Shown piece after piece: positions 10,497 through 23,028 of a stretch of DNA of 32,000 bases. Under the pieces are notes generated by a model that was not told the DNA's origin, made no database searches, and saw only the letters and a program-made list of their open reading frames with translations. Within the stretch, counting starts at the first letter, position 1; every line of letters begins with the position of its first letter. The DNA lies in the NCBI GenBank assembly GCA_052437885.1, contig JBQVPB010000011.1:13793-45792 (forward strand). Reading direction: 5' to 3'. The translations under genes and the position numbers were made by a program. The DNA is from Methylophilus sp. (GTDB taxonomy: Bacteria > Pseudomonadota > Gammaproteobacteria > Burkholderiales > Methylophilaceae).

Positions 10497-11420
10497 ATGA
10501 CCATTACGCATACCACTGAAACCAAACTCATCCAGGACGTAGAAAATTTACGCATTCAATTCCCGCAGGCAAAAGACCTATACAGAGAAGTCTGTCGTGT
10601 GATGTTCTTTCGATACGGCATTCAGCCAACAGCAAACAAGCTTTACCAGCTGGTGCGTAAAGGCACCATGACGATACCGGCGCAGGCGGTCAGTAATTTC
10701 TGGTCCGAACTCAGACTTAAAAACCGGGTAGATATCGAGCAATCTGGCTTGCCAGACAGCTTGCGCGAATTTGCAGGCGAAGCCCTCAGTACCTTATGGA
10801 AATCTGCGCTGGAAGTCGCCAGACAAAATGTGAAAGAAAAACAGTCTGCCACCAATGTCCTTGAAAATGCTTACAGGCTTGAGCTGGAAAGTTGCAAGGC
10901 TCAACTCCGTAAACTTGAAACTGTGAATGCAGAGCAGTCTTCGGAACTGATGACGCTGAGAAAGCAGTTGCAGGAGAGCGACAAAAGATTCCTCATTGAT
11001 CATCAGGTATCAGCCACCCACAAAGAATCCGTCAAAACGCTGCAATACGAAAAATCGGCGCTGGAAGGGTCACTAAAGAGCATCAATAACGAGTTTGATA
11101 CCGAACTGAATAAACTGCATGCCGCCTTGAAGTTGTCAGAAGACCGCTTTAGAAAACTGGAGTCAAAATCATTTACCGATGTAGACAGAGAGAGACAGCG
11201 CACATACAAGCTGGAGTCTGAAATCGCGGAGTTGAAAAAAACCATACTCAAAGAACATGCAGTCAACAAAACCCAGTCAGCCAAAAATCAAAAGCTGGTG
11301 AATGAGCTGCGGGAAAATGTCGGCCTGATCAAAGGTCAGTTAAAAGAATCACAACGCCAGCAACTGGTAGCGTCTAACAAGTTAAAGCAGATAGAGAGAA
11401 AAAAGCCATTGTTGAAATGA
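10497..11420 (+). CDS. KfrA_N-like DNA-binding protein with a long coiled-coil
   Basis: 307 aa. The N-terminus (PTANKLYQLVRKGTMTIPAQAVSNFWSELR) resembles the KfrA N-terminal DNA-binding domain pattern. The remaining ~200 aa are heptad-rich, charged coiled-coil (LRKLETVNAEQSSELMTLRKQLQESDKRF...). Confidence 0.5.
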   Translation: MTITHTTETKLIQDVENLRIQFPQAKDLYREVCRVMFFRYGIQPTANKLYQLVRKGTMTIPAQAVSNFWSELRLKNRVDIEQSGLPDSLREFAGEALSTLWKSALEVARQNVKEKQSATNVLENAYRLELESCKAQLRKLETVNAEQSSELMTLRKQLQESDKRFLIDHQVSATHKESVKTLQYEKSALEGSLKSINNEFDTELNKLHAALKLSEDRFRKLESKSFTDVDRERQRTYKLESEIAELKKTILKEHAVNKTQSAKNQKLVNELRENVGLIKGQLKESQRQQLVASNKLKQIERKKPLLK

Positions 11421-11448: not shown

Positions 11449-11760
11449 TTAATTTCGCATAATGTATAGCAAGTCGTAAATAACGGGGTTTGATGCCAGT
11501 ATTACAGCCCCTGAGAGCATGGCTGTCACTGCCATCAGTGACATTTTTGCATATCCACCTTGCATTAATTCCAAGGCCCTTCTAGCTTCTACATCTCCAA
11601 GAATCATAAGTTTTAATACTGTCTCACCGTCTGGTTTAGACAATCCCTGTTTCCAATTAGAAACCGTTCCTCTCGTTTTTCCTAAAGCCTGAGCTAGCTT
11701 GTAATCGCTCTCAATGTTTTTGTTCTTCTTAACTTCTTCTACTAAGTCATAGCCTGACAT
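11449..11760 (-). CDS. phage A HTH (Cro/CI-type) regulator with a hydrophobic C-terminal segment
   Basis: 103 aa. HTH is DYKLAQALGKTRGTVSNWKQGLSKPDGETVLKL. C-terminal hydrophobic stretch is MSLMAVTAMLSGAVILASNPVIY. AAGGAG lies 7 nt upstream of the ATG. Divergent from the structural operon. Homolog of 22723-23028. Confidence 0.7.
   Translation of the reverse strand: MSGYDLVEEVKKNKNIESDYKLAQALGKTRGTVSNWKQGLSKPDGETVLKLMILGDVEARRALELMQGGYAKMSLMAVTAMLSGAVILASNPVIYDLLYIMRN
11452..11479 (+). other. hybrid dif-like site (attL of prophage A): consensus XerC arm plus central region plus degenerate XerD arm
   Basis: ATTTCGCATAA-TGTATA-GCAAGTCGTAA compared with E. coli dif GGTGCGCATAA-TGTATA-TTATGTTAAAT. 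The left arm and spacer match; the right arm does not. Confidence 0.7.
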
Positions 11761-11812
11761 ACGTCACTCCTTACTTATTAATTAATGGATGCATTTTATT
11801 AGTATCTATCTA

Positions 11813-11860
11813 TTGACACAACGTCCCTAAATAAATACTATGTCCCTAAATTCATACTAT
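11813..11860 (+). promoter_or_regulatory. candidate early promoter of phage A with a tandem 19-bp operator-like repeat
   Basis: TTGACA (11813-11818), 17 nt, TACTAT (11836-11841). Repeat copies are GTCCCTAAATAAATACTAT (11823-11841) and GTCCCTAAATTCATACTAT (11842-11860), 17/19 identical and directly abutting. Confidence 0.45.
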
Positions 11861-11925
11861 GTAGACAACGAACCTGCCCCCGTTGTTCTGCAAATTCAAT
11901 TAGGGGCTATATAAGGGAATCAAAA

Positions 11926-12207
11926 ATGCAAATGAACCTACAAGTCCTTTCCATAGGCGCAATCGAATCAGGCACTAGTCAAGCAACCCGCAGACCATGG
12001 CACCGCCGCACATTCCAATGCTTTGATTTAGATGATCAGATAGTCGGTTCTATTACCCTGTACGCGCCAGAAGACGAATTAAAGGCTTATACGCAAAACG
12101 GCAAATATGTAGCGACTGTTACTAAGTCACAGGGCGATGGCGGCACGTTTGAGTTTCGCATCACTGCATTGCAGTTGATGACTGCACCACAAAAGGCTGC
12201 AGCTTAG
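11926..12207 (+). CDS. small phage protein, possibly the ssDNA-binding (gpV-like) protein
   Basis: 93 aa. First gene of the rightward operon. Homolog of 22290-22553 (shared QVLSIG..ESG.SQ....WHRRTFQ, GKY.A.V). The function is assigned only from size and position, so the call is tentative. Confidence 0.5.
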   Translation: MQMNLQVLSIGAIESGTSQATRRPWHRRTFQCFDLDDQIVGSITLYAPEDELKAYTQNGKYVATVTKSQGDGGTFEFRITALQLMTAPQKAAA

Positions 12208-12214
12208 AGATAAC

Positions 12215-12249
12215 AAAAAAGCCAACTGACTCGAATCAATTGGCTTTTT
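12215..12249 (+). terminator. conserved hairpin (attenuator or terminator) between the small gene and rep
   Basis: A6, then GCCAACTGA / TCAATTGGC (9-bp stem with one mismatch), loop CTCGAA, then T5. Almost the same sequence occurs in phage B at 22247-22280. Confidence 0.45.
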
Positions 12250-12279
12250 CTAATTTTAACGACTCGGAATCGCTAAAAC

Positions 12280-13239
12280 ATGGAACTAAGTATAGACCAA
12301 AGTTTTGACCATATCAATGATGCAGCGCTAGATGTTAGAGGCAATACAGGCATTGAAAAACCCTTTGAATACAGATTAAAAACACGAACATTTTTAAATA
12401 ATACGGTTGAGTTTGTCATGTCACGCATAAAGCATCGAATACCGAAGCTCCACAGCGACCCTATCTACGGGGAAATGACCTCATACACCAAAACCCTAAC
12501 CGATGAAGAAAGGGCGGCAAAAGATGCAGAAAACCTCAGTCGCGCAGTCAGGCGTGCAAAACAGGCTGTTTACTTCTCTGTCATGCAAATATCAGCAGAT
12601 CATCTGCTTACCCTTACAACTCGTGAAAACATCCAAGACCGTGAAAAATTCTTTACGGTTTTTACTAAATTTATCCGGCTCGTTAGAACCAAGATCCTTG
12701 TGGACGGCCGCCTTGTATCGACCCCGCGTCGCCCGTTCCATTACGTTGCTGTACCTGAGCTCCAAGACCGTGGTGCATATCATATGCACTGTGCAGTTGC
12801 TGGCTTTCAGGACGTTAAGCTGCTTCGTGCTTGTTGGTATGTTGCGCTTGGTGGCTCTGTTGGTGATTCTTCCGATACTGCGCTTGGTGCTATTAATGTC
12901 AGGTACAAACAAAGGCGGCTCGGTGGTCAATCAGAAACCTTTAAAACCTTTCAACTTGTCGGTTACCTCACGAAATACATTGATAAGGATTTCGCGGCAG
13001 ATAAGGCACTTCGCCTACACCGCTACCGTAAATCAAAAGACGTTCCTAAGCCAATCGAGTTCGACCAAGTCCTCATGGCCTGTAACTACCATGGAAACGA
13101 TTTTCTTGACGCGATCATTGAGGTTAACAGTATTGCCGCCTTTGTCACAGGGCAAAACACTGCAGGCATGATTCAGTGGAACAGGGGGCAAGATGTATAT
13201 GTATTACGTTCGGTCTTTCATGAAGAGCTGGAAGACTAA
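12280..13239 (+). CDS. rolling-circle replication initiator (HUH endonuclease, gpII-like)
   Basis: 319 aa. HUH motif is RGAYHMHCAV. Candidate catalytic Tyr region is LVGYLTKYIDKDF. Homolog of 21269-22216. Confidence 0.8.
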   Translation: MELSIDQSFDHINDAALDVRGNTGIEKPFEYRLKTRTFLNNTVEFVMSRIKHRIPKLHSDPIYGEMTSYTKTLTDEERAAKDAENLSRAVRRAKQAVYFSVMQISADHLLTLTTRENIQDREKFFTVFTKFIRLVRTKILVDGRLVSTPRRPFHYVAVPELQDRGAYHMHCAVAGFQDVKLLRACWYVALGGSVGDSSDTALGAINVRYKQRRLGGQSETFKTFQLVGYLTKYIDKDFAADKALRLHRYRKSKDVPKPIEFDQVLMACNYHGNDFLDAIIEVNSIAAFVTGQNTAGMIQWNRGQDVYVLRSVFHEELED

Positions 13240-13309
13240 AGCAACAGAATTTGCCTTTCTGGCAAGTGTGGTCGCAGTCACTTTACTGCGTTTTTATTGA
13301 GGATGAATC

Positions 13310-13501
13310 ATGAAATTGATTAACAAAGTAGTAGCAGGTGTAACTGGTCTCTTGGTCGTTGGTCTTGCACATGCAGAAGTTCCGGCAACAGTTACCGCCG
13401 CCTTCTCAGAAGCAAATACCGATATCGCTACCGTAGCATGGGGCCTGGCTGTTGTAGCCTTCATTGGTACAACAATCCGCATCATTCGTAACCGCGCATA
13501 A
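13310..13501 (+). CDS. major coat protein (gpVIII-like)
   Basis: 63 aa. Signal peptide MKLINKVVAGVTGLLVVGLAHA, acidic N-terminal region, hydrophobic core WGLAVVAFIGTTI, and a basic C-terminus RIIRNRA. This is the canonical inovirus coat layout. Confidence 0.7.
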   Translation: MKLINKVVAGVTGLLVVGLAHAEVPATVTAAFSEANTDIATVAWGLAVVAFIGTTIRIIRNRA

Positions 13502-13511
13502 TGCAAGGGTA

Positions 13512-13538
13512 GGGCGGCATAAAAAAGTCGCCCTTTTT
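13512..13538 (+). terminator. candidate terminator or attenuator after the coat gene
   Basis: GGGCG / CGCCC stem (13512-13516 / 13529-13533) followed by T5 (13534-13538). The loop is long at 12 nt. Confidence 0.35.
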
Positions 13539-13540
13539 CC

Positions 13541-13876
13541 ATGGGATTCCAATTAAAAGATATTTGTTACCCTGATCAACAAACTGCAGTTGATGCGTTT
13601 TTCTTGTCACAGCAAATGCACCTACAGTCAACACCTGACGATACGAGTATTTTCTATTTTCAGAAGTACCAGAACCAGTGGTCTATATGTAGGCAAAACA
13701 CAAACACGAACACTCCCTCAACGTGTTCAACCATAGAAAACCCCGTTCTCTCAGAGTGCGTATACGCAAGTGACCCTGTATCAAATTTCATGACTGGTTT
13801 AGAGCTGGGTGGCTATGTGGCCGCTGTTATTGCAATCGCAGCAATTGGCAAAGTCATCAGAGAAAAGGCTATATAA
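13541..13876 (+). CDS. phage A protein with a C-terminal TM anchor (minor virion or assembly protein)
   Basis: 111 aa. MGFQLKDICYPDQQTAVDAF... aligns with MGYQLKDVCYSTETMAQDAY... of 20609-20941. C-terminal helix is LGGYVAAVIAIAAIG. Confidence 0.55.
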   Translation: MGFQLKDICYPDQQTAVDAFFLSQQMHLQSTPDDTSIFYFQKYQNQWSICRQNTNTNTPSTCSTIENPVLSECVYASDPVSNFMTGLELGGYVAAVIAIAAIGKVIREKAI

Positions 13877-13950
13877 ATGAGCGAATTAGGCAACCTCTAT
13901 ATGTGGGCAGGTTTTCTTTGTGCAGTCTTACCGGCATACGTCCTAGCATC

Positions 13951-15309
13951 ATGAATCCATCGAATAGTTTTTATGAGTGGTGCGTGGGCGCTACCCACTG
14001 GATATGCGGACGCGGACCGCTCATTATGTTACTCCTCCTGCTGACCCCAGTAATCTCTAATTCAGCAGAGGAATACGCAAAACCACGATTCTACTTATCA
14101 AACTTTGCTGACATTTATTACGATACACAAGAAGCTGCTTGTTCTGCAGGTGCACCCCGTCAAGTAGCCAATAGCGGTACTCTAACAAGTGCTATCGTTG
14201 CTTATTCCAACGGAAACCGCAACATGCTAGGAACCTGCTGGATTAAGTCCACGCCATTTAATCAGGTAGGCACCTCTGTTTCAAACCTCAATGTACTAGC
14301 GCAACATAGCTGCCCTGCAGGCTATACACTTGGCCCAGCTAACCAAACAAACATCTACCAGCGCCTCTGCACAATTGCAAGTTGCCCATCAGGCACCACG
14401 CTAAATACGGCCACAAATAAATGCGATGACAACTGCTTACCCATTAAAGGCCAGCTAGCTTCTTTTGGCTTGAACTGTTCCTCAGAAACCTCCCAAGCTA
14501 TGCCAGTATGTATGCCTAATAATTGCGCGGCTAACGTTATAGATACAGCAAGTGTAAGGCTCGGAAACTGTTGGTATGGTTCAAATACAGCTAGATACAC
14601 CGGCGAACGTTGTAATGGTCAACGGTCGTCAAGTTCATTCTCAAACCCCTCAAACGAAAATCCGCCGCCAGCAGACAAGCCTGAAACAGACTGCATCAAA
14701 CAGGGGAAAAGTTTTGGCTATGTGAACGGTGTACCAGTATGCGTGCCTAAAGGTTCTGCAAGCGCAACACCTATTACACAAACAAACCAAAACACCACTA
14801 CAACTACAAACACCGATTCAGGCGGCAACACCACATCGAGCACAACAACAGAAACGAAAAATGCGACACAAGAAGGCGACCAAGTTACAAGCCAGATAAT
14901 AAAAACAAACCCTGACGGCACAAAAACCGAAGAAACAAAGACAGAGCCTGTCTATCAATTTTGCGCAACAAACCCCACTCACCCGATATGCAAGAAACCT
15001 GCAAGCGAGGAGGAGGAGGGTGTAGACCCCTGTGAGGACAGGCCAGACTTACCACAGTGTTATGACAGGGGTGAACCCACCGATACAGACACAATATCCA
15101 GTGTAAATAAGTCTTTCTCTTTTGCACCCCTTGCCATGGCATCAAGCGCAGGTTGCCCAGCAGACCGTGTATTTGTTCTTTCTGGCCGCTCATTTACAGT
15201 TCCTTTCGACAGGTTCTGCACGCTGGTCGCCTCTCTCAAACCTTTGATACTGGCATTTGCATACATGACTGCTGCCGGCATCATGTTTAATGGATGGAAA
15301 AATTCATGA
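13951..15309 (+). CDS. adsorption / minor coat protein (gpIII-like), Cys-rich with a Thr/Asn-rich linker
   Basis: The track ORF starts at GTG 13903. ATG 13951 or ATG 14026 (MLLLLLTPVISNSA/EEY) are more likely starts, so the start is ambiguous. There are many Cys, a linker TQTNQNTTTTTNTDSGGNTTSSTTTETKN, and a C-terminal TM helix LILAFAYMTAAGIMF. Position before pVI/pI. Homolog of 19237-20535. Confidence 0.6.
   Translation: MNPSNSFYEWCVGATHWICGRGPLIMLLLLLTPVISNSAEEYAKPRFYLSNFADIYYDTQEAACSAGAPRQVANSGTLTSAIVAYSNGNRNMLGTCWIKSTPFNQVGTSVSNLNVLAQHSCPAGYTLGPANQTNIYQRLCTIASCPSGTTLNTATNKCDDNCLPIKGQLASFGLNCSSETSQAMPVCMPNNCAANVIDTASVRLGNCWYGSNTARYTGERCNGQRSSSSFSNPSNENPPPADKPETDCIKQGKSFGYVNGVPVCVPKGSASATPITQTNQNTTTTTNTDSGGNTTSSTTTETKNATQEGDQVTSQIIKTNPDGTKTEETKTEPVYQFCATNPTHPICKKPASEEEEGVDPCEDRPDLPQCYDRGEPTDTDTISSVNKSFSFAPLAMASSAGCPADRVFVLSGRSFTVPFDRFCTLVASLKPLILAFAYMTAAGIMFNGWKNS
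14911..14963 (+). repeat. 53-bp block perfectly identical to the reverse complement of 19589-19641
   Basis: CCTGACGGCACAAAAACCGAAGAAACAAAGACAGAGCCTGTCTATCAATTTTG. Checked base by base against the reverse complement of 19589-19641. The flanking bases differ on both sides. Confidence 0.95.
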
Positions 15310-15575
15310 CTTGGTATACATGGGTTATTGCACTAGTCTCGCCTGTAGTAAAGAAGGTGCTTCTCGCCCTAGGTGTCGGAATAATCACATATACAGGCTT
15401 TGACTTGATGATCGGCCAGATACAGGGCTATATAAATAACCAAATGTCTGGCTTAGCTACAGAAGTCTTCCAGACCATTTCACTAATGGGCGTTCCTGAA
15501 TCCTTCGGCATCATCCTAGGTGCATACGCCTCTAGTGCAGCTTTGATGCAGGCTAAAAGGTTCGCACTACTATGA
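15306..15575 (+). CDS. gpVI-like minor coat / DUF2523-like membrane protein
   Basis: The track start is 15294. ATG 15306 aligns with the phage B homolog (MTWYTWVIALVSPVVKK versus MTWAAWVLALVAPIAKR) and gives an ATGA overlap with the pIII-like stop. There is also an ATGA overlap with the zot start (15572-15575). Confidence 0.6.
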   Translation: MTWYTWVIALVSPVVKKVLLALGVGIITYTGFDLMIGQIQGYINNQMSGLATEVFQTISLMGVPESFGIILGAYASSAALMQAKRFALL

Positions 15576-16801
15576 TCACTATAATTACTGGAACGCCTGG
15601 ACAAGGTAAGACAGCCTTATTAGTAAAAATGCTACTCGACAATGACAGGCTAATGGAATCTGCAAGACCAGTCTTTGCCTGTAACATTCCAGATCTCAAA
15701 ATCCCGCACGTCAAAGCGCCCCCTGTAAAAGAGTGGACTGTATTAAAACCACTCGAACTAGAGCCAGAAAAAGACAGGGCTGAATACGCATTCCCGCCTA
15801 ATTCACTACTGATTGTTGACGAGGCTCAGCTATATTTTGAGGCACAGTCATCCGGCTCAAGGAAGCCACCCCACATCCAAGCCCTGCAGACACATCGTCA
15901 TACCGGCCTTGATATAATCCTCATTAGCCAAAAACCCATGCTCATGCATGCAGATGTTCGTGCACTCTGCGGCCGCCACATACACTTAAGGAAGTCTTTC
16001 CTGCAGAGAAAACTTTACGAATGGCCGGAGTACTCAGATGTAAACAGTAAGGCGGCACTAAAAGAAGCCATCAGGAGGCCATACAAACCACCTAGAGAGG
16101 CCTTCAAATACTACACATCATCACAGCTACACACGAAGCAACAAGCCAGAACTAACCCCTTAATATTCGCGCTGCCTCTCTTAGCAATAATGCTTGCAGG
16201 CCTTTCCTACCGTTATTACACGACGCATCCACAATTATTCAATAAAGAGGCAAAAAATGAAGTTGGCCAAAACCTCAAAGTGGTCGAGAAGGGCGCGGAA
16301 ACTAATAATGCAGGACAGGCTCTTTCACAAGCTATACAGCACAGTCTCCCCATCGGGGTACACCCTAACCCAGATGCACCGGAAACCACTCAGGACGTAC
16401 ACGGTGATCCGGCCTTCAATGTCTCGAATGAGGTACACCCTTATTCTGGATTTACGTTTGTTCTCGTTGGCGTGGTGAAGTCAAAAGCAAACGAGCTTAG
16501 TTATTACAGGCTTTCAAATGGTGAGTATGGATTCACAGCAACCAGCACTGATCTAAAAGAACTAGGCTACTCCATCAAGGTAGCAAACAGGTGCACAGCA
16601 TACTTGGTGTACGAGAAGGCCAAGATAGTAGCTATTTGCGGCCTCCCAGAAGCCCCTAAAGCGCCTCAAACTGCCCGCAGTGACACAGAAGACCCAAAGG
16701 GGGATATTAGGGGGCGACAGCCCCTTGATGCAGACAGTATCGATATAACTCCGAAGAGCTGGGAAACTTATCATGCACCGTCGCCCCTTACGAAGTACTA
16801 G
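15572..16801 (+). CDS. Zot-family assembly ATPase (gpI-like)
   Basis: 409 aa. Walker A is ITGTPGQGKT and Walker B is LLIVDEAQ. A central TM helix LIFALPLLAIMLAGL precedes a C-terminal periplasmic domain. Homolog of 17781-18974. Confidence 0.9.
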   Translation: MITIITGTPGQGKTALLVKMLLDNDRLMESARPVFACNIPDLKIPHVKAPPVKEWTVLKPLELEPEKDRAEYAFPPNSLLIVDEAQLYFEAQSSGSRKPPHIQALQTHRHTGLDIILISQKPMLMHADVRALCGRHIHLRKSFLQRKLYEWPEYSDVNSKAALKEAIRRPYKPPREAFKYYTSSQLHTKQQARTNPLIFALPLLAIMLAGLSYRYYTTHPQLFNKEAKNEVGQNLKVVEKGAETNNAGQALSQAIQHSLPIGVHPNPDAPETTQDVHGDPAFNVSNEVHPYSGFTFVLVGVVKSKANELSYYRLSNGEYGFTATSTDLKELGYSIKVANRCTAYLVYEKAKIVAICGLPEAPKAPQTARSDTEDPKGDIRGRQPLDADSIDITPKSWETYHAPSPLTKY

Positions 16802-16820
16802 GCCCCCTGCTAAACAAATA

Positions 16821-16844
16821 AAAGCCACTTATGTGGCTTTTTTT
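16821..16844 (+). terminator. rho-independent terminator after zot (phage A)
   Basis: AAAGCCAC / GTGGCTTT stem (16821-16828 / 16833-16840), loop TTAT, T-run to 16844. Confidence 0.65.
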
Positions 16845-16900
16845 ACACCTTCGCTTAACTGCAGGAACACTACAATTCTTAACAATTGCTGCAAATTACA

Positions 16901-16963
16901 CGCGCCGCTAGGCGCGCCGTACTAAATTTATATTACGGACGTTTTACAACAGAATAATAAAAA
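16901..16963 (+). promoter_or_regulatory. phage A intergenic element: GC hairpin plus a highly conserved 42-nt block (candidate origin or packaging signal)
   Basis: Hairpin CGCGCC-GCTA-GGCGCG (16901-16916). The block at 16922-16963 is 40/42 identical to the reverse complement of 17580-17621, far above the surrounding similarity. Confidence 0.4.
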
Positions 16964-16966
16964 AGC

Positions 16967-17248
16967 ATGGGTTTTGATCAATCAAAATATATTGAGTTGC
17001 CGAAATGGTCGGACGAGTTGCGGCATCTGTATTGGATGATTAGATTTGAACGCCGGAATGTAGCGACGCGTAGAAGGTATTACAGGAAGGTAGAACGCGA
17101 GAAATTGCGTTTAGCTGAACTTGGTATCAATCAAACAAAAATAGCGGCTGTATGCCGCTATTTATCAAACTTCAAGAATGCAGAAACTTTAAGCCGGATA
17201 TTGGCCGAGATTGAGGCCCAAATGACGATAGATTTTAGAACGGTATGA
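16967..17248 (+). CDS. conserved small basic phage protein of unknown function (att-proximal)
   Basis: 93 aa. Alignable over most of its length with 17290-17577 (SKY.ELP.WS..LRHLYW.IR...YYRKVE.EKLRLAE.GI.Q.KIAAVCRYL.NFKNA.TL). No family recognised. Confidence 0.6.
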   Translation: MGFDQSKYIELPKWSDELRHLYWMIRFERRNVATRRRYYRKVEREKLRLAELGINQTKIAAVCRYLSNFKNAETLSRILAEIEAQMTIDFRTV

Positions 17249-17272
17249 AGGCCTCTTATTCTCTGACCTCCT

Positions 17273-17300
17273 ATTTCGTATAATGTATATTATGTTAAAT
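17273..17300 (+). other. dif: complete dif-like XerC/XerD recombination site at the junction of the two prophages
   Basis: ATTTCGTATAA-TGTATA-TTATGTTAAAT. The central region and XerD arm are identical to E. coli dif (GGTGCGCATAA-TGTATA-TTATGTTAAAT). The XerC arm matches at 7 of 11 positions. Confidence 0.8.
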
Positions 17301-17577
17301 CGCAGAAGAAAGCTAAGGCCAACTGATAATCTGGTTCTGCCAGCGTCTTTCGCAATGTACTAGCGTTTTTGAAGTTACAAAGATAGCGGCAAACAGCCGC
17401 TATTTTTATTTGTGCTATCCCAGCTTCGGCCAACCGCAATTTCTCTTTCTCGACCTTCCTGTAATACTTCCTACGTTTCGACTCGATACGTCCTTCTACT
17501 CGAATAATCCAATACAGGTGCCGGAGACTTTCCGACCAGTCTGGAAGCTCTACATATTTGCTGCCGTCAAATGCCAT
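17290..17577 (-). CDS. conserved small basic phage protein of unknown function (att-proximal), phage B
   Basis: The track ORF starts at GTG 17631. The ATG at 17577-17575 (MAFDGSKYVELP) aligns with the start of the phage A homolog (MGFDQSKYIELP). The last codons and the stop lie inside the XerD arm of the dif site. Confidence 0.6.
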   Translation of the reverse strand: MAFDGSKYVELPDWSESLRHLYWIIRVEGRIESKRRKYYRKVEKEKLRLAEAGIAQIKIAAVCRYLCNFKNASTLRKTLAEPDYQLALAFFCDLT

Positions 17578-17579
17578 GG

Positions 17580-17639
17580 TTTTTATTGTTCTGTTGTAAA
17601 ACGTCCGTAATATAAATCTAGTGGCGGCCACAGCCGCCA
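17580..17639 (-). promoter_or_regulatory. phage B intergenic element: conserved 42-nt block plus a GC hairpin
   Basis: 17580-17621 is the counterpart of 16922-16963 (40/42). Hairpin TGGCGGC-CACA-GCCGCCA at 17622-17639 occupies the same relative position as the phage A hairpin but has an unrelated stem sequence. Confidence 0.4.
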
Positions 17640-17741
17640 GACGTTGCGCCCAGCCGTCCGCGGTGCCCGCTGCCAGCTTGTCGCACTAGGAAACGACAGA
17701 ATGTTAATTAGTGTAATCATTGGTTTAAGATAAAGAGTTGT

Positions 17742-17766
17742 AAAAAAAGCACCTAAAAGGTGCTTT
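17742..17766 (-). terminator. rho-independent terminator after zot (phage B)
   Basis: AGCACCT / AGGTGCT stem with loop AAA. A7 on the + strand gives T7 on the - strand. Confidence 0.6.
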
Positions 17767-17780
17767 GTTCGGCAAGGGGG

Positions 17781-18974
17781 TCAGTACTTTGTAGCTGGCG
17801 ACGGTGCGTGATACGTATCCCAGCTTCTCGAATCCAGATTGATGTTGTCTGCATCAGGGGGCTGTCGCCCCCTAATATCCCCCAAGGTATCCTTGGCCTT
17901 AGCTTCGATGGTTTGGGGCTTTTGTGGGTCCTGTGGCAGGGCGCAGATAGCTACTATCTTGGCCTTTTCGTATATCAGATATGAGGTGCAGTTGTTTGCT
18001 ACCTTAACCGAGTAGCCCAGCTCTTGCAGCTCATCACTTGTGGCCGTGAATCCATACTCACCATTGAAAAGCCTATAGTAGCTAATTTCCTTTCTAGCGC
18101 CCTTCACTGACCCCACCAGAACGAAAGTAAAGCCAGAGTATGGATGAATGTCATTTGAGACGTTAAAAGCTGGGTCTGGTCCTGAGTACTCTTGCGCCCC
18201 CGGGGATTCGTGCAATTCACCATCGATTAGATCCCGACGAGGTTTTTTTGAATCTGTGCCGGCTTTGCTGGGTGCGCTGGAAGCCGCTTCCTGTATAGGT
18301 TTATCACTCATGCGGCCAGAAATACTTGTAAAAGCTCGATAGCCCATATAACCCATAAAAACGACAGCTAGAGCAAGATATATCCAGACCTGATGAAAGC
18401 GCCGAGGTTGCTTTGTATGCATCTCGCTGGACTTGTAGTATTTGAAGGATTCTTTAGGCGGTTTAAATGCCCTCTTCGCCGCTGCATCTAAGTTTGCCTT
18501 ATTGTCCGTGTCGTTATATTCCGGCCATTCGTAAAGCTTGCGGCCGAGGATAGTATCTCTGATGTGGATATGGCGGCCGCAGAGGTGACGAACATTGACG
18601 TCTACAAGGTTAGGCTTTTGCGTAAGCAGGATTATATCTAAGCCCGTATGGCGGTGCGTTTCAAGTGCAGCAACGTATGGCGGTACTTTGGTTCCTGCAG
18701 AGCGTGGGCGGTAGACCCTCTGAGCTTCATCCAGTATCAGGTATGAGTTAGGAGGAAAGGTAAAGTAATCAAGCATTAATGACGGGTCATCAGGGTCTGG
18801 CCGCTTCTCTGTCCACTCTTCTACAGGTGGCGCCTTTACATGCTCGATTCTTAAGTCAGGTATGCCCATAACAAAAACAGGCCTCGCATTTGAGGCCTTG
18901 TCGTTTGCTAGGAGCATTTGAACGAGTAACGCAGTTTTGCCCATGCCAGGCACGCCAGTGATTATTGTAATCAT
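17781..18974 (-). CDS. Zot-family assembly ATPase (gpI-like), phage B
   Basis: 397 aa. ITGVPGMGKT (Walker A), LILDEAQ (Walker B), TM helix VWIYLALAVVFMGYMGY. The C-terminal domain is shared with phage A (DPAFNVSN..HPYSGFTFVLVG, YEKAKIVAIC, GDIRGRQP). Confidence 0.9.
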   Translation of the reverse strand: MITIITGVPGMGKTALLVQMLLANDKASNARPVFVMGIPDLRIEHVKAPPVEEWTEKRPDPDDPSLMLDYFTFPPNSYLILDEAQRVYRPRSAGTKVPPYVAALETHRHTGLDIILLTQKPNLVDVNVRHLCGRHIHIRDTILGRKLYEWPEYNDTDNKANLDAAAKRAFKPPKESFKYYKSSEMHTKQPRRFHQVWIYLALAVVFMGYMGYRAFTSISGRMSDKPIQEAASSAPSKAGTDSKKPRRDLIDGELHESPGAQEYSGPDPAFNVSNDIHPYSGFTFVLVGSVKGARKEISYYRLFNGEYGFTATSDELQELGYSVKVANNCTSYLIYEKAKIVAICALPQDPQKPQTIEAKAKDTLGDIRGRQPPDADNINLDSRSWDTYHAPSPATKY

Positions 18975-19240
18975 AGGATACCCAGCCTTTTAACGACCAT
19001 GAGAGAAGCCGCAGAGGTAATGCCGCCAAGCATTATTCCTATCGATTCAGGAATACCCATCATTGTGGCTATACCGAGTATGTCAGATGTAGTGCCACCA
19101 ATCGATTGATTAATCATTGTGGTTAACTGACCTATTGCCATATCGAAGCCAGTAACCGTAATAATGCCTATGCCTAGTGCGACCATAACCCTTTTTGCGA
19201 TTGGTGCGACTAGTGCGAGAACCCAAGCAGCCCAAGTCAT
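18971..19240 (-). CDS. gpVI-like minor coat / DUF2523-like membrane protein, phage B
   Basis: 89 aa. ATGA overlaps with both neighbours. Homolog of 15306-15575. Confidence 0.6.
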   Translation of the reverse strand: MTWAAWVLALVAPIAKRVMVALGIGIITVTGFDMAIGQLTTMINQSIGGTTSDILGIATMMGIPESIGIMLGGITSAASLMVVKRLGIL

Positions 19241-20535
19241 GAATTAGCCCCTCTCAAACCCATAAATAAGAACATGGCCGCAGACAGATAAGCGAATGCA
19301 AGCATGAACGGTTTAAACATGGATGCGTAATTACAAAGCCATGTATAACTGAATGTGATTGACTTGCCAGCTATAGATACTGACTTGTCGGCAGGGCATG
19401 AACCGCCTGAGGTAATGGTTACAGGTGAAAAGTTGATTGTTCGTGCGTCTGTAGTGAGATTATCGCCCTCCTCAGCTTCACCAACCTTCATGCATCTAGG
19501 CAGGTCTGGGTTGTCCTCGCAGGAATCTTCGCCCTCCTCATCCTCACTGGCAGGTTTCTTACATATCGGGTGCGTAGGGTTTGATGCACAAAATTGATAG
19601 ACAGGCTCTGTCTTTGTTTCTTCGGTTTTTGTGCCGTCAGGATTCGTTTTTATAGTCTGGCTTGTTACTTGATCGCCATCCTGTGTGGCGTTCTTTGTTT
19701 CAGTGGAGGTATTAGAAGTACTGTTTCCGGCTGAATCTGTGTTAGTCGTCGTTGTGGTACTTTGGTTTGTTTGGGTAACGGGCGCAGCACTAGCTGAGCC
19801 TTTAGGTACGCAAACTGGAACACCGTTTACATAACCGAAACTTTGCCCTTTTCGTACGCAATCAGTTTCTGGCTTATCGGTAGGGTCTGGGGCGTTTGTA
19901 GGGTTTGAAAAGGAAGCCGCAGAAGGTTGTCCGCTACAACCCTCTCCCGAATATCTGGCTGTATTAATACCATAATAACAACTGGTGACAAATACGCTTG
20001 TAGTGTCAACGATGACGGCCGCACAGTTATTTGGCATACAAACGCCCTGACCTGATGAAGTTCCAGCTGAGCAATTCAAACCGAAAGAGCCCATCTTGCC
20101 TTTCATTGGTAGGCAGTTGTCCTCGCATTGGTTTGTAGCTGTATTCAGCGTGGTGCCAGTGGGGCAAGCTGCTATTGTGCATGTGCGCTGATAGATGTTT
20201 GTTTGGTTTGCTGCACCAAGTAGATAACCAGCCGGGCAAGAATGCTGGGCTAATACATTCAGGTTTGAAACGGAGGTGCCTGTCGAATTGTATGGGGTAG
20301 ACTTAATCCAACATGTACCTAGCAGATTGCGTCCACCGGGGTATGAAACAATCGCACTAATTAATGTTCCATTGTTTGCAACCTGTCGAGGTGCACCAGA
20401 TGAACATGCAGCTTCCTGAGTATCGTAAAAGTTATCAGGAAAGCCTGACAGGTAAAAACGAGGCTTAGCGTATTCCTGAGCTGAGAAACAGGAGCTAGAA
20501 ACCAATAAGAGGAAAAGAAGAGATAGCAGCTTCAT
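19237..20535 (-). CDS. adsorption / minor coat protein (gpIII-like), phage B
   Basis: The track ORF starts at 20583. The ATG at 20535 gives a clean signal peptide MKLLSLLFLLLVSSSCFSA/QEY. It has the same Cys pattern, Thr/Asn linker and C-terminal TM helix as phage A. Confidence 0.65.
   Translation of the reverse strand: MKLLSLLFLLLVSSSCFSAQEYAKPRFYLSGFPDNFYDTQEAACSSGAPRQVANNGTLISAIVSYPGGRNLLGTCWIKSTPYNSTGTSVSNLNVLAQHSCPAGYLLGAANQTNIYQRTCTIAACPTGTTLNTATNQCEDNCLPMKGKMGSFGLNCSAGTSSGQGVCMPNNCAAVIVDTTSVFVTSCYYGINTARYSGEGCSGQPSAASFSNPTNAPDPTDKPETDCVRKGQSFGYVNGVPVCVPKGSASAAPVTQTNQSTTTTTNTDSAGNSTSNTSTETKNATQDGDQVTSQTIKTNPDGTKTEETKTEPVYQFCASNPTHPICKKPASEDEEGEDSCEDNPDLPRCMKVGEAEEGDNLTTDARTINFSPVTITSGGSCPADKSVSIAGKSITFSYTWLCNYASMFKPFMLAFAYLSAAMFLFMGLRGANS
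19589..19641 (-). repeat. 53-bp block, perfect inverted copy of 14911-14963
   Basis: The reverse complement equals 14911-14963 exactly. Lies inside the gpIII-like gene. Confidence 0.95.
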
Positions 20536-20608
20536 TTTGTGAGAGTGATAACAGGTAAAACCACAATAAGGAAGCCAGCCCAAAGATAAATGTTTGCAAG
20601 TTCATCCA

Positions 20609-20941
20609 TTAGAACCTCACTCTTAAAAAGCGCCACAGAAAAGCCACTATGATCGCGCCAGCTACAGCAGCACCGAGTTCAGTACCAGCTATAAATTGGG
20701 CGGTTGGGTCGCTATGGTCTGTACATGTTGAAAACGCCGGAAAGTTGATGTCAGGGCATTGAGTAAGGCCACCAGTAGACAAACTGTGAGCGCCCATGCA
20801 CCAAGCACCAGAGACTTTTTCAGGGTAGAAAAAAACGCTTGTTGAATCGTTAACAACGAATGCAGGCTGCATAGATTGTGCATATGCATCTTGTGCCATA
20901 GTCTCAGTTGAATAACAAACATCTTTTAGTTGATAACCCAT
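20609..20941 (-). CDS. phage B protein with a C-terminal TM anchor (minor virion or assembly protein)
   Basis: The ATG at 20941 (MGYQLKDVCY) aligns with the phage A homolog start. C-terminal helix is LGAAVAGAIIVAFLW. Confidence 0.55.
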   Translation of the reverse strand: MGYQLKDVCYSTETMAQDAYAQSMQPAFVVNDSTSVFFYPEKVSGAWCMGAHSLSTGGLTQCPDINFPAFSTCTDHSDPTAQFIAGTELGAAVAGAIIVAFLWRFLRVRF

Positions 20942-21001
20942 GATTTTGTCCAAAAAATGGCGAGGTGATGAACCCCGCCAAACTCGAAGGAAGCAAGCTT
21001 A

Positions 21002-21193
21002 TTAACCAGCCTTGCGCTTCAACCAGAACAGAACACCAACGGTTACAGCCATGCCCAAAAACAGGCCACCAAGTGTTACACCGTCAGCTTCGGCAGTTGC
21101 AATCGCGTCAGCTACACCAGCTGGCAGAGCAGCCATTGCAGAAGTTGCCAGACCAGTTAAACCCAAACCTAATGCATAAGAGATACGTTTCAT
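21002..21193 (-). CDS. major coat protein (gpVIII-like), phage B
   Basis: 63 aa. Signal peptide MKRISYALGLGLTGLATSAMA, an acidic segment, hydrophobic core LGGLFLGMAVTVGVLFW, and a basic tail LKRKAG. Confidence 0.7.
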   Translation of the reverse strand: MKRISYALGLGLTGLATSAMAALPAGVADAIATAEADGVTLGGLFLGMAVTVGVLFWLKRKAG

Positions 21194-21268
21194 GATTACA
21201 CCCTTTAAAAAAATCGACAGTAGACGACTGTCAGCGTAGTGGCCAGAAAGGCCAATTCGATAATTCGG

Positions 21269-22216
21269 TTAATCCACATAAGCAGAACGGAGGATGTAAA
21301 TATCCTCCCCCCTATTCCAGGGAATCATTTGTGTAGGATGTTGCCCTGTGACAAATTGGGCTATTTGTGACACCTCGATTAGGGCGTCAATGAAGTCTTT
21401 ACCGCCTGCATTACAGGCCATAAGCACTTGGTTAAACTCGATAGGTTTAGGAATATCACGCGCTTTTAGATAGCGGTGTTGCCCCAACTCCGAAGTGTGT
21501 GCGAAGTCCTTATCAATGTATTTTGTAAGGTAACGAACAAGGGAAAAAGTCTTATGTGTTTCTGATTGATTACCCCAGCGTTTCTGGCGGTATTGCACAT
21601 CAACTTGACCAAGCGCAGTATCGCCAGCATCAGAGATATTGCCACCCAGCGCGACATACCAACAGGCACGTAGGAAACGAATGTCCTGACGACCAACCAC
21701 AGCGCAGTGAAGATGATATGCACCACGGTCCTGTAGTTCAGGGACAGCCACGTAAGCATAGGATTTACGCGGTACTGTAATGAGGCGACCATTGACCAGA
21801 ATCTTTGTGCGGACAAGTCTAATAAAGCGCTGGAAAATTTCGAAGTATTTAGCGCGCTCTGTAATGTTTTCACGGGTCGTGAGTGTGAGCAGATGATCAG
21901 CGCCGATTTGACGGATTGCATAGTGAACAGATTTTTTTGCACGTCTTACCGCCCTTTCTAAGTTTTCTGCATCTTTAGCAGCCTTCTCTTCATCTGTCAG
22001 TGTGCGAGCGTACGTAGTTAACTCGCCGTATGTCGGCTCTTGAGTTAGCTTTGGAATTGTATGCTTAATGCGCGTCATGATGAAGTCGATAGTGTTATTT
22101 GCAAAGGTCACAGTCTTAAGTTTGTATTCGTGTACGCTTTCAATGCTTCTATGGTTCTTTGGGTCAAGGTAGTCATCGTTGACAACTGAATCAAAGGTAT
22201 TTAAAGTTAAGTCCAT
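21269..22216 (-). CDS. rolling-circle replication initiator (HUH endonuclease, gpII-like), phage B
   Basis: 315 aa. RGAYHLHCAV (HUH) and LVRYLTKYIDKDF. Long identical runs with phage A Rep (DHLLTLTTRENI, FIRLVRTKILV, YVAVPELQDRGAYH, LRACWYVALGG). Confidence 0.8.
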   Translation of the reverse strand: MDLTLNTFDSVVNDDYLDPKNHRSIESVHEYKLKTVTFANNTIDFIMTRIKHTIPKLTQEPTYGELTTYARTLTDEEKAAKDAENLERAVRRAKKSVHYAIRQIGADHLLTLTTRENITERAKYFEIFQRFIRLVRTKILVNGRLITVPRKSYAYVAVPELQDRGAYHLHCAVVGRQDIRFLRACWYVALGGNISDAGDTALGQVDVQYRQKRWGNQSETHKTFSLVRYLTKYIDKDFAHTSELGQHRYLKARDIPKPIEFNQVLMACNAGGKDFIDALIEVSQIAQFVTGQHPTQMIPWNRGEDIYILRSAYVD

Positions 22217-22246
22217 GTTTAAGCCATTCCGAGTGGTTTAAATTAG

Positions 22247-22280
22247 AAAAAGCCAATTGATTACAGTCAGTTGGCTTTTT
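22247..22280 (-). terminator. conserved hairpin between the small gene and rep, phage B
   Basis: Counterpart of 12215-12249. It is the AGCCAA...TTGGCT stem flanked by A and T runs. Confidence 0.45.
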
Positions 22281-22289
22281 CGTTGTCTA

Positions 22290-22553
22290 TCACGCTGGTT
22301 TTACTGGTAAGAGGTCAACAATAGACGGTACTAAGCGCCCGTTATCCCCTGCCCTGTTACGAACCACGGCTGTATATTTGCCGCCTTCTTTGTACGAATT
22401 CAATTTGTCCAAATCGCCGTAAACAGGGATATTGCCTGCTACTTTGGCTTCTATGTCATAAACTTGGAATGTGCGGCGGTGCCACTCTGTACCGCGCTGG
22501 GATTTGCCGGATTCTGTTTCGCCGATAGATAAAACTTGAATTTGAATTGACAT
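22290..22553 (-). CDS. small phage protein, possibly ssDNA-binding (gpV-like), phage B
   Basis: 87 aa. Homolog of 11926-12207. The function is tentative. Confidence 0.5.
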   Translation of the reverse strand: MSIQIQVLSIGETESGKSQRGTEWHRRTFQVYDIEAKVAGNIPVYGDLDKLNSYKEGGKYTAVVRNRAGDNGRLVPSIVDLLPVKPA

Positions 22554-22622
22554 GATTTAAGCCCTTATATAGCCCCTTGTGTGTGTAAATCGGAACTATG
22601 GGGGCAGGTTCATAGTCCGTGT

Positions 22623-22666
22623 TAAAGTTAGGACGTATGTTAATCCTAAGTTTATGACGTTGTCAA
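22623..22666 (-). promoter_or_regulatory. candidate early promoter of phage B with two operator-like repeats
   Basis: On the minus strand: TTGACA (22666-22661), 18 nt, TAACAT. Repeats ACGTCATAAACTTA (22660-22647) and ACGTCCTAACTTTA (22636-22623) match at 11 of 14 positions. Confidence 0.35.
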
Positions 22667-22722
22667 TACTTTAGAACGGTATAAAATACTGACTATTGAA
22701 ATAAAGCTGATAGGAGCTATAA

Positions 22723-23028
22723 ATGGCCGGATACGGACTGATTGAAGCAATCAAAGAAAATACAGATTTGAAAAGCGATTATGCGATCGCAAAGGAAATC
22801 GGCGTAGGCAGGCAGAATATAAGCACCTGGAAGAACACGGGAACGATGCCAGACGCGATAACGGTATTGAAGTTAGCAGAACTAGCCAAGCTGACACCAT
22901 CACAAGCCCTAGCGAAGCTGCAAGGCGGCTATGCAAGTGTGTCACTGATGGTAGTGACAGCAACCCTTTCTATCGCCCTGCTTTCAAGCCATTTCCCAGC
23001 TAACCCACTGTATATTATGTTAAATTAA
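22723..23028 (+). CDS. phage B HTH (Cro/CI-type) regulator with a hydrophobic C-terminal segment
   Basis: 101 aa. HTH is DYAIAKEIGVGRQNISTWKNTGTMPDAITVLKL. Hydrophobic stretch is VSLMVVTATLSIALLSS. TAGGAG lies upstream of the ATG. The 3' end overlaps the hybrid dif site. Confidence 0.7.
   Translation: MAGYGLIEAIKENTDLKSDYAIAKEIGVGRQNISTWKNTGTMPDAITVLKLAELAKLTPSQALAKLQGGYASVSLMVVTATLSIALLSSHFPANPLYIMLN
22998..23025 (+). other. hybrid dif-like site (outer att of prophage B): degenerate XerC arm plus central region plus perfect XerD arm
   Basis: AGCTAACCCAC-TGTATA-TTATGTTAAAT. The 17 nt TGTATATTATGTTAAAT are identical to 17284-17300. Confidence 0.7.

Follow-up and report, generated by a model that had tools for sequence, protein, structure and literature searches.

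Does a filamentous phage that carries its attachment site inside a regulator gene possess a sensor of its own integration state, or is the altered end of the protein a by-product of a compact layout? This question is raised by the chromosomal dif site of a Methylophilus sp., located in the 32,000-nucleotide stretch analyzed here (the window), which is occupied by two related filamentous prophages of about 5.8 kb, A and B, in mutually inverted orientation. An initial annotation had observed that the HTH regulator gene of each prophage runs through the recombination core, and had proposed that the resulting pair of isoforms reports whether the phage is episomal or integrated. Our analysis upholds the architecture and gives no support to the sensor. 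The features of the locus are collected in Table 1.

Table 1. Features of the dif locus and its two prophages. Positions are those of the window.
Feature	Position	Strand	Description
attL of prophage A	11452-11479	+	ATTTCGCATAA-TGTATA-gcaagtcgtaa; hybrid junction
attL A, host XerC arm	11452-11462		ATTTCGCATAA
attL A, spacer	11463-11468		TGTATA
attL A, degenerate phage arm	11469-11479		GCAAGTCGTAA
Full dif between the prophages	17273-17300	+	ATTTCGTATAA-TGTATA-TTATGTTAAAT; regenerated
attR of prophage B	22998-23025	+	agctaacccac-TGTATA-TTATGTTAAAT; followed by host TAA
attR B, degenerate phage arm	22998-23008		AGCTAACCCAC
attR B, spacer	23009-23014		TGTATA
attR B, host XerD arm	23015-23025		TTATGTTAAAT
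Host-derived TAA stop, prophage-form regulator A	11449-11451	-	present in uninterrupted M. luteus site
Host-derived TAA stop, prophage-form regulator B	23026-23028	+	present in uninterrupted M. luteus site
HTH (XRE/CI-type) regulator gene, prophage A	11449-11760	-	prophage form 103 aa, ends ...YDLLYIMRN and stop
HTH regulator gene, prophage B	22723-23028	+	prophage form 101 aa, ends ...ANPLYIMLN and stop
Promoter-like site by regulator B	22660-22687	+	promoter scan
RF-only extension, regulator A	17189-17272	-	27 codons and TAA 17189-17191; antisense to 3' end of small ORF 16967-17248
RF-only extension, regulator B	17301-17363	+	20 codons and TAG 17361-17363; antisense to 3' end of small ORF 17290-17577
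Terminator-like hairpin, regulator A direction	17139-17163	-	ATAGCGGC-N5-GCCGCTAT and T-run; 25 nt past RF stop
Terminator-like hairpin, regulator B direction	17379-17407	+	15 nt past RF stop
Prophage A, ~5.8 kb inovirus	11469-17283	+	ORF list, Pfam and PHROG scans, similarity to MW202882
A, ssb-like	11926-12207		
A, rolling-circle Rep	12280-13239		
A, coat	13310-13501		
A, ORF	13541-13876		
A, attachment-like	13903-15309		
A, pVI-like	15294-15575		
A, Zot	15572-16801		
A, small ORF	16967-17248	+	
Prophage B, mirror image of A	17290-23008	-	ORF list, Pfam and PHROG scans, similarity search
B, small ORF	17290-17577	-	
B, Zot	17781-18974		
B, pVI-like	18971-19240		
B, attachment-like	19237-20583		
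B, ORF	20609-20953		
B, coat	21002-21193		
B, Rep	21269-22216		
B, ssb-like	22290-22553		

Two inverted inovirus prophages bracket a regenerated dif site

We delimited the insertion by scanning GTDB genomes for an empty site. Methylophilus luteus CCUG 58412 carries an uninterrupted one (...CCATCTTTAATTTCGCATAATGTATATTATGTTAAATTAAAGGTG...) flanked by the same genes as in the window, a KfrA-like gene and the gene downstream. Because this site is uninterrupted, the 11.5 kb between the outer spacers of the window is an insertion, and because the outer arms and both TAA stops are present in the empty site, these are host DNA, in agreement with the earlier proposal that the last codons and the stop of each regulator come from the host. 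The middle site between the prophages is a full dif, with one mismatch to the composite and no matches in 100 shuffles of the window. Its XerC arm ATTTCGTATAA stems from phage A and its XerD arm TTATGTTAAAT from phage B; the host XerC arm ATTTCGCATAA has C, not T, at position 7. The TGTATA spacer and the XerD arm presumably agree with E. coli dif. At the left end, 4 of 11 positions of the degenerate phage arm GCAAGTCGTAA agree with the XerD consensus.

The reconstructed attP of phage A combines a good XerC arm and a dif spacer with a degenerate second arm, and in that of phage B it is the first arm that is degenerate, with the spacer and a good XerD arm following. Each of these attP types leaves a good dif on the inner side, and the inverted pair therefore brackets the middle dif. 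Two other arrangements were considered and rejected. A CTX-type attP of folded single-stranded DNA is ruled out, since dif-like sites number only three in the 11.5 kb insert and neither phage has an inverted pair of them. Origin of the pair by one inverted duplication is ruled out by the 46% identity of the regulators, the different att arms and the existence of single-copy relatives at the same locus: metagenomic contig L018 holds a single B-type prophage there, and metagenomic contig L026 has an A-type junction adjoining the KfrA-like gene.

Both phages show the rolling-circle Rep, small coat, pVI-like protein, Zot/pI-like ATPase, conserved gene order and 5-8 kb size of Inoviridae, and at the DNA level they share 72-74% identity with MW202882, a circular Inoviridae virome genome. 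Each encodes an ssb-like protein (PHROG 2866), a Rep (PF23343 and PHROG 3419), a Zot (PF05707), a coat protein of 63 aa and an att-proximal small ORF of 93-95 aa (PHROG 27692), with matches overall to REP_ORF2-G2P and Zot in Pfam and to PHROG 3419, 197 and 2866; a comparison of the small ORF with the PDB found nothing. No integrase was found in either phage among all ORFs of at least 60 aa, the large ones being Rep, attachment-like and Zot. Inserted at dif, with a dif-like attP and without an integrase of their own, A and B are predicted IMEXs, and the pair is best explained as two putatively heteroimmune, Xer-dependent filamentous prophages.

The regulator gene reads through the attachment core into host DNA

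Both HTH ORFs cross the recombination core with translations that proved accurate to the base, and both are open as far as the host TAA, which rules out a true stop upstream of the att core. In regulator A, which is identical to a protein annotated in a Methylophilus sp. metagenome-assembled genome, the last 4 codons and the stop are host-encoded. Its residues 1-67 form a CI/Cro-type HTH domain (Pfam HTH_3 and Phage_CI_repr; PHROG 4441/638). The AlphaFold model has a five-helix HTH domain at 3-67 (pLDDT about 80) and further helices at 71-102; Foldseek ranks the DNA-binding domains of the P22 c2, TP901-1 CI and 434 repressors highest. Residues from about 71 to 90 make up a hydrophobic helix whose 19-residue Kyte-Doolittle mean of 1.7-1.8 (1.71 in A) lies above the usual transmembrane threshold of 1.6; the att-encoded residues come after it. 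The gene is divergent to the replication/structural operon, with promoter-like sites adjacent. We also asked whether a hairpin inside the regulator gene generally terminates the convergent operon, but dropped the idea, as the T-run is present in phage A only.

The same protein could be linked to recombination itself and tied in cis to the att site: it might assist or activate Xer, or act as a tether to the membrane or the septum. The gene/att overlap would then be a means of inheriting factor and site together as a module, and the tail changes would be irrelevant. Two observations on the module fit this idea: regulator and attP are both missing from the circular relative L001, which keeps the small-ORF tail motif LAE..QLxFxF, and the same regulator/attP module is found on two different replication backbones. 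A membrane location could follow from the predicted hydrophobic helix, and XacF1 ORF12 promotes integration. Both attP types lack one good arm, a situation in which TLCphi needs the activator XafT, composed of an XRE HTH and DUF3653 (PMC6744903, PMC4246890). The HTH domain, however, resembles those of classical phage repressors, and a gene divergent to the replication/structural operon, beside promoter-like sites, is in the usual position of a repressor. Domain searches were negative as well for membership in either DUF3693 or DUF3653: DUF3693 had no match in the window proteins (E<=0.1) or in 10 family representatives (E<=1), DUF3653 had none in the regulators or small ORFs, and no alignment was obtained between the small-ORF profile and XacF1 ORF11. 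We consider a dedicated recombination factor improbable.

Overlap of regulator and attachment core is a family trait

We surveyed relatives of the regulator for the same overlap. All 14 close homologues (14/14) end in dif-encoded peptides, which occur in three frames: LYIM(L/R)N, CILC followed by a stop, and VYYVK. Of 110 distant representatives of at most 160 aa, found in a set of 1.8 billion clustered proteins, 85 have a dif-encoded motif after residue 75, and some distant representatives have XerC-arm versions of the peptide (LYTLCE, IHYAK). At the DNA level, a search of IMG/VR with a pattern of spacer plus XerD arm gave 122 dif-like sites, 31 of them crossed by an ORF of the regulator family; scanning GTDB genomes with a protein pattern from the family alignment found no loci. 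The overlap is thus seen with both arm types and in three frames, and we read its occurrence in the window as not due to chance.

The initial annotation had ascribed the conserved LYIM peptide to constraint on the DNA, and the relatives that read the same core as LYIMLN, CILC or VYYVK bear this out. The LYIM-type peptide is conserved because its DNA is constrained as a Xer spacer and arm, and these alternative frames show that the peptide itself is not the apparent target of selection. The core TGTATATTATGTT encodes mostly hydrophobic residues in all three frames, which may be why the hydrophobic C-terminus tolerates the overlap.

Replicative forms carry longer tails of unrelated sequence

Rejoining the prophage ends as in a circular replicative form (RF) gave the longer tails exactly as first noted. 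Regulator A then ends ...LYIIRNRRSENKRPSYRSKIYRHLGLNLGQYPA (130 aa in the RF versus 103 in the prophage) and regulator B ...LYIMLNRRRKLRPTDNLVLPASFAMY (121 versus 101 aa). Both extensions begin with basic residues and run antisense to the small ORFs, also as described, and the basic start arises because the Phe-rich end of the small ORF is encoded on the opposite strand. In phage B the stop of the small ORF lies inside the XerD arm. The terminator-like hairpin beyond the RF stop of regulator A sits in the small-ORF codons IAAVCRY.

For comparison, RF junctions were rebuilt for six single prophages (L003, L013, L018-L021), and two circles, MW202693 (L002) and L017, were read directly; L017 is a natural circle with a 27-nt terminal overlap, present in 10 samples. 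Prophage forms in the close family measure 99-104 aa. The corresponding RF forms are 121, 120, 121, 121, 121, 121, 118, 118 and 130 aa; 8 of the 10, read in three frames, measure 118-121 aa. In L017 a TAA within the phage's own arm ends the ORF and leaves a 99-aa protein whether the genome is circular or integrated. L017 alone has an RF stop in the same place as in the prophage, which for this phage is an outcome that the initial annotation had listed as refuting. In IMG/VR, four more circular contigs have a regulator of this family running across attP, and these are open for 55, 45, 41 and 18 codons from the spacer, giving a range of 18-55 codons for the natural circles L002, L036, L064, L108 and L116. 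Counted from the end of the arm, 5 of 6 natural circular relatives read on for 14-51 codons, with unrelated tail sequences. A long RF form appears to be the rule, with L017 as the one clear exception.

The tail frame may be kept open, but the tail sequence is not conserved

If the isoform change served as an integration-state switch, the long RF form and the short prophage form would differ in activity, and repression would be effective only after integration. The basic tail might block membrane insertion or oligomerization of the hydrophobic C-terminus, or might destabilize the protein, as an IMEX counterpart of the integration-dependent immunity of mycobacteriophages. We therefore weighed the properties of the tails against this possibility.

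Several properties agree with a switch. The overlap is conserved in the family and in XacF1, the RF forms are of similar length across three frames, and each RF stop in the window is followed by a terminator-like hairpin. Of 14 RF tails, 13 carry a net positive charge; the mean is +3.8 in the regulator frame versus +1.7 in the other frames, and prophage tails past the hydrophobic segment have a net charge of 0. In the frame-0 phages (L002, L020, L021, L116), the arm variant TTATGTTCAAT replaces the in-arm TAA by TCA and so deletes the in-frame stop. From outside the family come the influence of XacF1 ORF12 on integration kinetics and prophage stability and a proven precedent in BPs gp33 (103 versus 136 aa). 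Openness of the frame points in the same direction: in 9 of 10 close-family junctions, reconstructed or natural, no stop occurs for 23-33 codons counted from the spacer, and in six of these the open stretch is exactly 26 codons despite the use of all three frames through dif, and the other two frames reach at least 23 codons in only 4 of 20 cases. When the small ORF was resampled with synonymous codons, however, the regulator frame stayed open to the observed length in 20-67% of trials per phage, so that open frames are expected fairly often. Multiplied over about 6 lineages these probabilities give roughly 0.002, a value that is uncorrected and stands beside one counter-example. Preservation of the open frame is at most a weak signal.

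The tail sequence argues the other way. We compared codon positions in five phages with the same tail frame and found 60, 35 and 92 differences in the overlap at small-ORF positions 1, 2 and 3, respectively. Because small-ORF position 3 pairs with tail position 2, the most variable positions of the tail are those that a coding sequence should hold most constant, and its wobble positions vary least. On DNA that is 63% identical, mean amino acid identity is 63% for the small ORF versus 30% for the tail; mean column identity of the small ORF is 79%. No ssrA-type tag was found in the tail ends (YPA, AMY, LMY, DLL, YQT, YKT, TGQ), none of which is of the Ala-Ala type, and a degradation tag was dropped as an explanation, the tail ends being neither recognizable as such nor conserved. 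Signs of selection on the tail sequence are clearly absent, and the tail is most likely not a sequence-specific domain.

Two relatives carry tails past the arm that do not look phage-derived. The 121-aa protein of L028 (P0006) has a 21-residue tail past the arm, and the downstream DNA is without the small-ORF/hairpin signature of the phages; P0007 has an 8-residue tail that is not phage-like either. Both tails are probably read from the host flank, and L028 is probably a prophage form, in which case a short tail would not be required of the integrated state.

Homologues maintain the extension ORF only in part: nearly all junctions are open, but the sequence they encode is only 30% identical and L017 stops within its arm. 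The sensor proposal is not supported, as it meets a tail much less conserved than the small ORF opposite, a circular phage without any tail, natural tails of widely differing length and unrelated sequence, the lack of ssrA-like ends, and the L028 tail. The tail might serve regulation, but the data do not indicate this, and we regard an integration-state switch as rather unlikely. A still broader proposal would make integrase-free, integration-dependent immunity general in Xer-dependent inoviruses: a tail-anchored membrane HTH repressor would bear an episomal basic extension that blocks its insertion, oligomerization or stability, XerCD at dif would trim it to the active form, and the host dif flank would supply the stop. 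This we think unlikely.

A probable compact lysogeny module with a tolerated read-through

With moderate confidence, we favor a conserved compact lysogeny module whose attP lies in the overlap of the convergent regulator and small ORF, the RF-only tail being tolerated read-through. In both phages the attP core occupies the last codons of a divergently transcribed CI/Cro-type regulator with a C-terminal hydrophobic helix. In the circular RF, the regulator ORF would cross attP and continue for 20-27 further codons antisense to the conserved convergent small ORF, stopping 15-25 nt ahead of a terminator-like hairpin. Integration, by putative XerCD exchange at the spacer, swaps the good arm and everything beyond it for host DNA, and the sequence shows that the protein encoded in the integrated state ends in arm-encoded residues and a host TAA, shortened from 130 to 103 aa in A and from 121 to 101 aa in B. 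Two isoforms would be the unavoidable result of packing attP into the overlap of convergent genes, and the core-encoded residues, in any frame, would merely prolong the hydrophobic C-terminus.

Should the isoform change prove functional, filamentous phages would have an integrase-independent way of sensing the episomal versus the integrated state, and integration-dependent immunity would extend from actinobacteriophages to IMEXs. Among the filamentous phages are the kin of CTXphi and TLCphi and of the Xanthomonas phages that have been considered as biocontrol agents. If the overlap is no more than a by-product, it still helps annotation: attP can be located exactly from the 3' end of a regulator gene of this family, the dif core and the frame in which it is read can be told from the C-terminal peptide (LYIMLN, CILC or VYYVK), and the length of the regulator separates prophage-derived from episome-derived sequences. 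That homologous modules carry either a XerC-arm or a XerD-arm attP also explains inverted prophage pairs bracketing dif. Although the layout itself has been published already, the family-wide survey makes the clean experiment obvious.

Comparison with known systems

In XacF1, attP lies inside the regulator ORF12 (Ahmad et al. 2014, PMC4076744; 2017, PMC5666396), and its authors pointed out that the putative regulator is split on integration, with a possible change of function (PMC4076744). Deletion of the 5' part of ORF12 delayed integration and made the prophage unstable, which ties the regulator to the integration state (PMC5666396). Like A and B, XacF1/Cf1c is a XerCD-dependent inovirus at dif. 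Its attP TATACATTATGCGAA consists of a XerC arm and spacer, as in phage A, and is located in the 3' part of the HTH regulator. As translated here, ORF12 has an HTH domain, a hydrophobic segment, the sequence ...HPLYIMRS and a 24-aa RF-only tail, and it reads the core in the same frame as phage A; its HTH domain is related to those of the present family (hhalign probability 96% over 55 columns). XacF1 differs in that ORF12 has a C-terminal Pfam DUF3693 (4e-14), for which the present family has no match, and in that its tail consists of another hydrophobic stretch and then basic residues. Downstream of attP, XacF1 has the co-oriented DUF3653 (XafT-like) ORF11, whereas A and B have the convergent small ORF of PHROG 27692.

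TLCphi (Midonet et al. 2014, 2019; PMC6744903, PMC4246890) resembles phage A in its good XerC arm, dif-identical spacer and degenerate XerD arm, and its integration likewise regenerates a functional dif. It is, however, a satellite that encodes XafT (DUF3653), and no DUF3653 protein is detectable in A or B; its attP has an ORF-free XerD-side flank, whereas here attP lies inside a gene. A related module of RstR/P16, XafT/P15 and a dif-like attP, in which repressor and attP are exchangeable, is described for Vibrio CTX-I inoviruses and PM2-like double jelly-roll phages in the available part of PMC12715192. The 17-bp 'left-armed' attP reported there, with XerD arm and spacer, is of the phage B type, and one junction of those elements regenerates dif, as here. 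In the elements covered by that part, attP is located between two genes, and an ORF/att overlap is not among the subjects discussed in it.

The mycobacteriophage BPs shows integration-dependent immunity with attP in repressor gene 33 (Broussard et al. 2013; Villanueva et al. 2015, PMC4557955). Activity resides in the 103-aa prophage form of gp33; the 136-aa viral form, shown to be inactive, is broken down via an ssrA-like tag (PMC4557955). The likeness lies in the attP within the repressor gene and the shorter prophage protein, with lengths of 103 versus 136 aa there and of 103/130 and 101/121 aa here. BPs, in contrast, belongs to the tailed dsDNA phages, encodes a tyrosine integrase and has its attB in a tRNA gene; the present phages have no integrase, no tag-like end and an unconserved tail. 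The att-in-regulator layout is already described, in XacF1, and the idea of a switch has been raised for XacF1 ORF12 and demonstrated in BPs. To the arrangement described for XacF1, the present pair appears to add a new case, in which the tail swap is a hypothetical switch.

Half-sites at dif and overlap of the ORF with dif-like sites

The two Xer-dependent filamentous prophages, phages A and B, lie in inverted orientation around a full, regenerated dif. Their homologous HTH regulator modules carry opposite half-sites, namely the XerC arm plus spacer in phage A and the spacer plus XerD arm in phage B. As a consequence, the two integrate on opposite sides of dif. On the host side, dif is adjoined by a gene whose coiled-coil product (307 aa) contains KfrA_N, a domain that is usually plasmid-associated. 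This position next to dif is conserved in M. luteus and in the related loci L018 and L026.

ORFs matching the family profile also cross dif-like sites at nine IMG/VR loci (L043, L046, L054, L066, L074, L101, L121, L129 and L131). The upstream arm at these loci, AGTGCGCATTA, is a near-consensus XerC-type arm with 3 mismatches to the Methylophilus host arm. Judged by these arm sequences, both arms of the nine sites are probably good, so that the overlap of ORF and site would extend beyond half-site attPs.

Hairpins within and beyond the regulator gene

A hairpin within the regulator gene (Table) is followed by a T-run in phage A only. Across 13 relatives, its Thr codon is ACA in every case, and the Ser residue, present in 10 of the 13, is always encoded by TCA. 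A paired change (TGTTA/TAACA) occurs in the L021 hairpin. Together, codon use and the paired change suggest constraint at the nucleic acid level.

Two terminator-like hairpins lie beyond the regulator's replicative-form stop, within the convergent att-proximal small ORF (PHROG 27692), whose invariant IAAVCRY motif is encoded by exactly this hairpin DNA; the conserved object may be either the peptide or the hairpin. Among the phage proteins, the Arg-rich small ORF product shows the strongest conservation (79% column identity), and for it we found no similarity to Pfam, PDB or XafT, the DUF3653 Xer activation factor of TLCphi.

Table. Positions of features in the window and in related inovirus loci (L-numbers)
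Feature	Position	Strand	Remark
Terminator-like hairpin, ATAGCGGC-N5-GCCGCTAT + T-run	17139-17163	(-)	Oriented as regulator A
Terminator-like hairpin, ATAGCGGC-N5-GCCGCTAT + T-run	17379-17407	(+)	Oriented as regulator B
Regulator-gene hairpin, TGTCAC-N6-8-GTGACA	11524-11543 (A); about 22940-22959 (B)		Codes for SLMAVT; also in relatives L002-L028
KfrA_N host gene	10497-11420	(+)	Adjoins dif
Prophage pair	11452-23025		Inverted orientation
Regenerated dif	17273-17300		Full site
Small ORF, phage A	16967-17248	(+)	PHROG 27692
Small ORF, phage B	17290-17577	(-)	Stop codon within phage XerD arm
52-aa ORF	L001 402-560		Between promoter region and ssb-like gene
Extra ~108-aa ORF	L013 6272-6604; L018 7678-8004; L019 7934-8263; L024 913-1236		Directly upstream of regulator gene, co-oriented

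Module content and inferred exchange among relatives

L001 (MW202882, circular, 5531 nt), a relative of phage B, lacks both the regulator gene and attP (region 1-600) and could represent a derivative that is virulent or does not integrate; the terminator-like hairpin is retained though the regulator gene is gone. Four close relatives carry an extra ORF without Pfam annotation that is missing from both window phages. When L017, L020 and L002 were compared with the window phages, L013, L018, L019 and L021, two replication modules, Rep_trans (PF02486) and REP_ORF2-G2P (PF23343), were found joined to the same regulator-attP module. This arrangement of sequences indicates modular exchange, plausibly by Xer recombination between co-resident elements.
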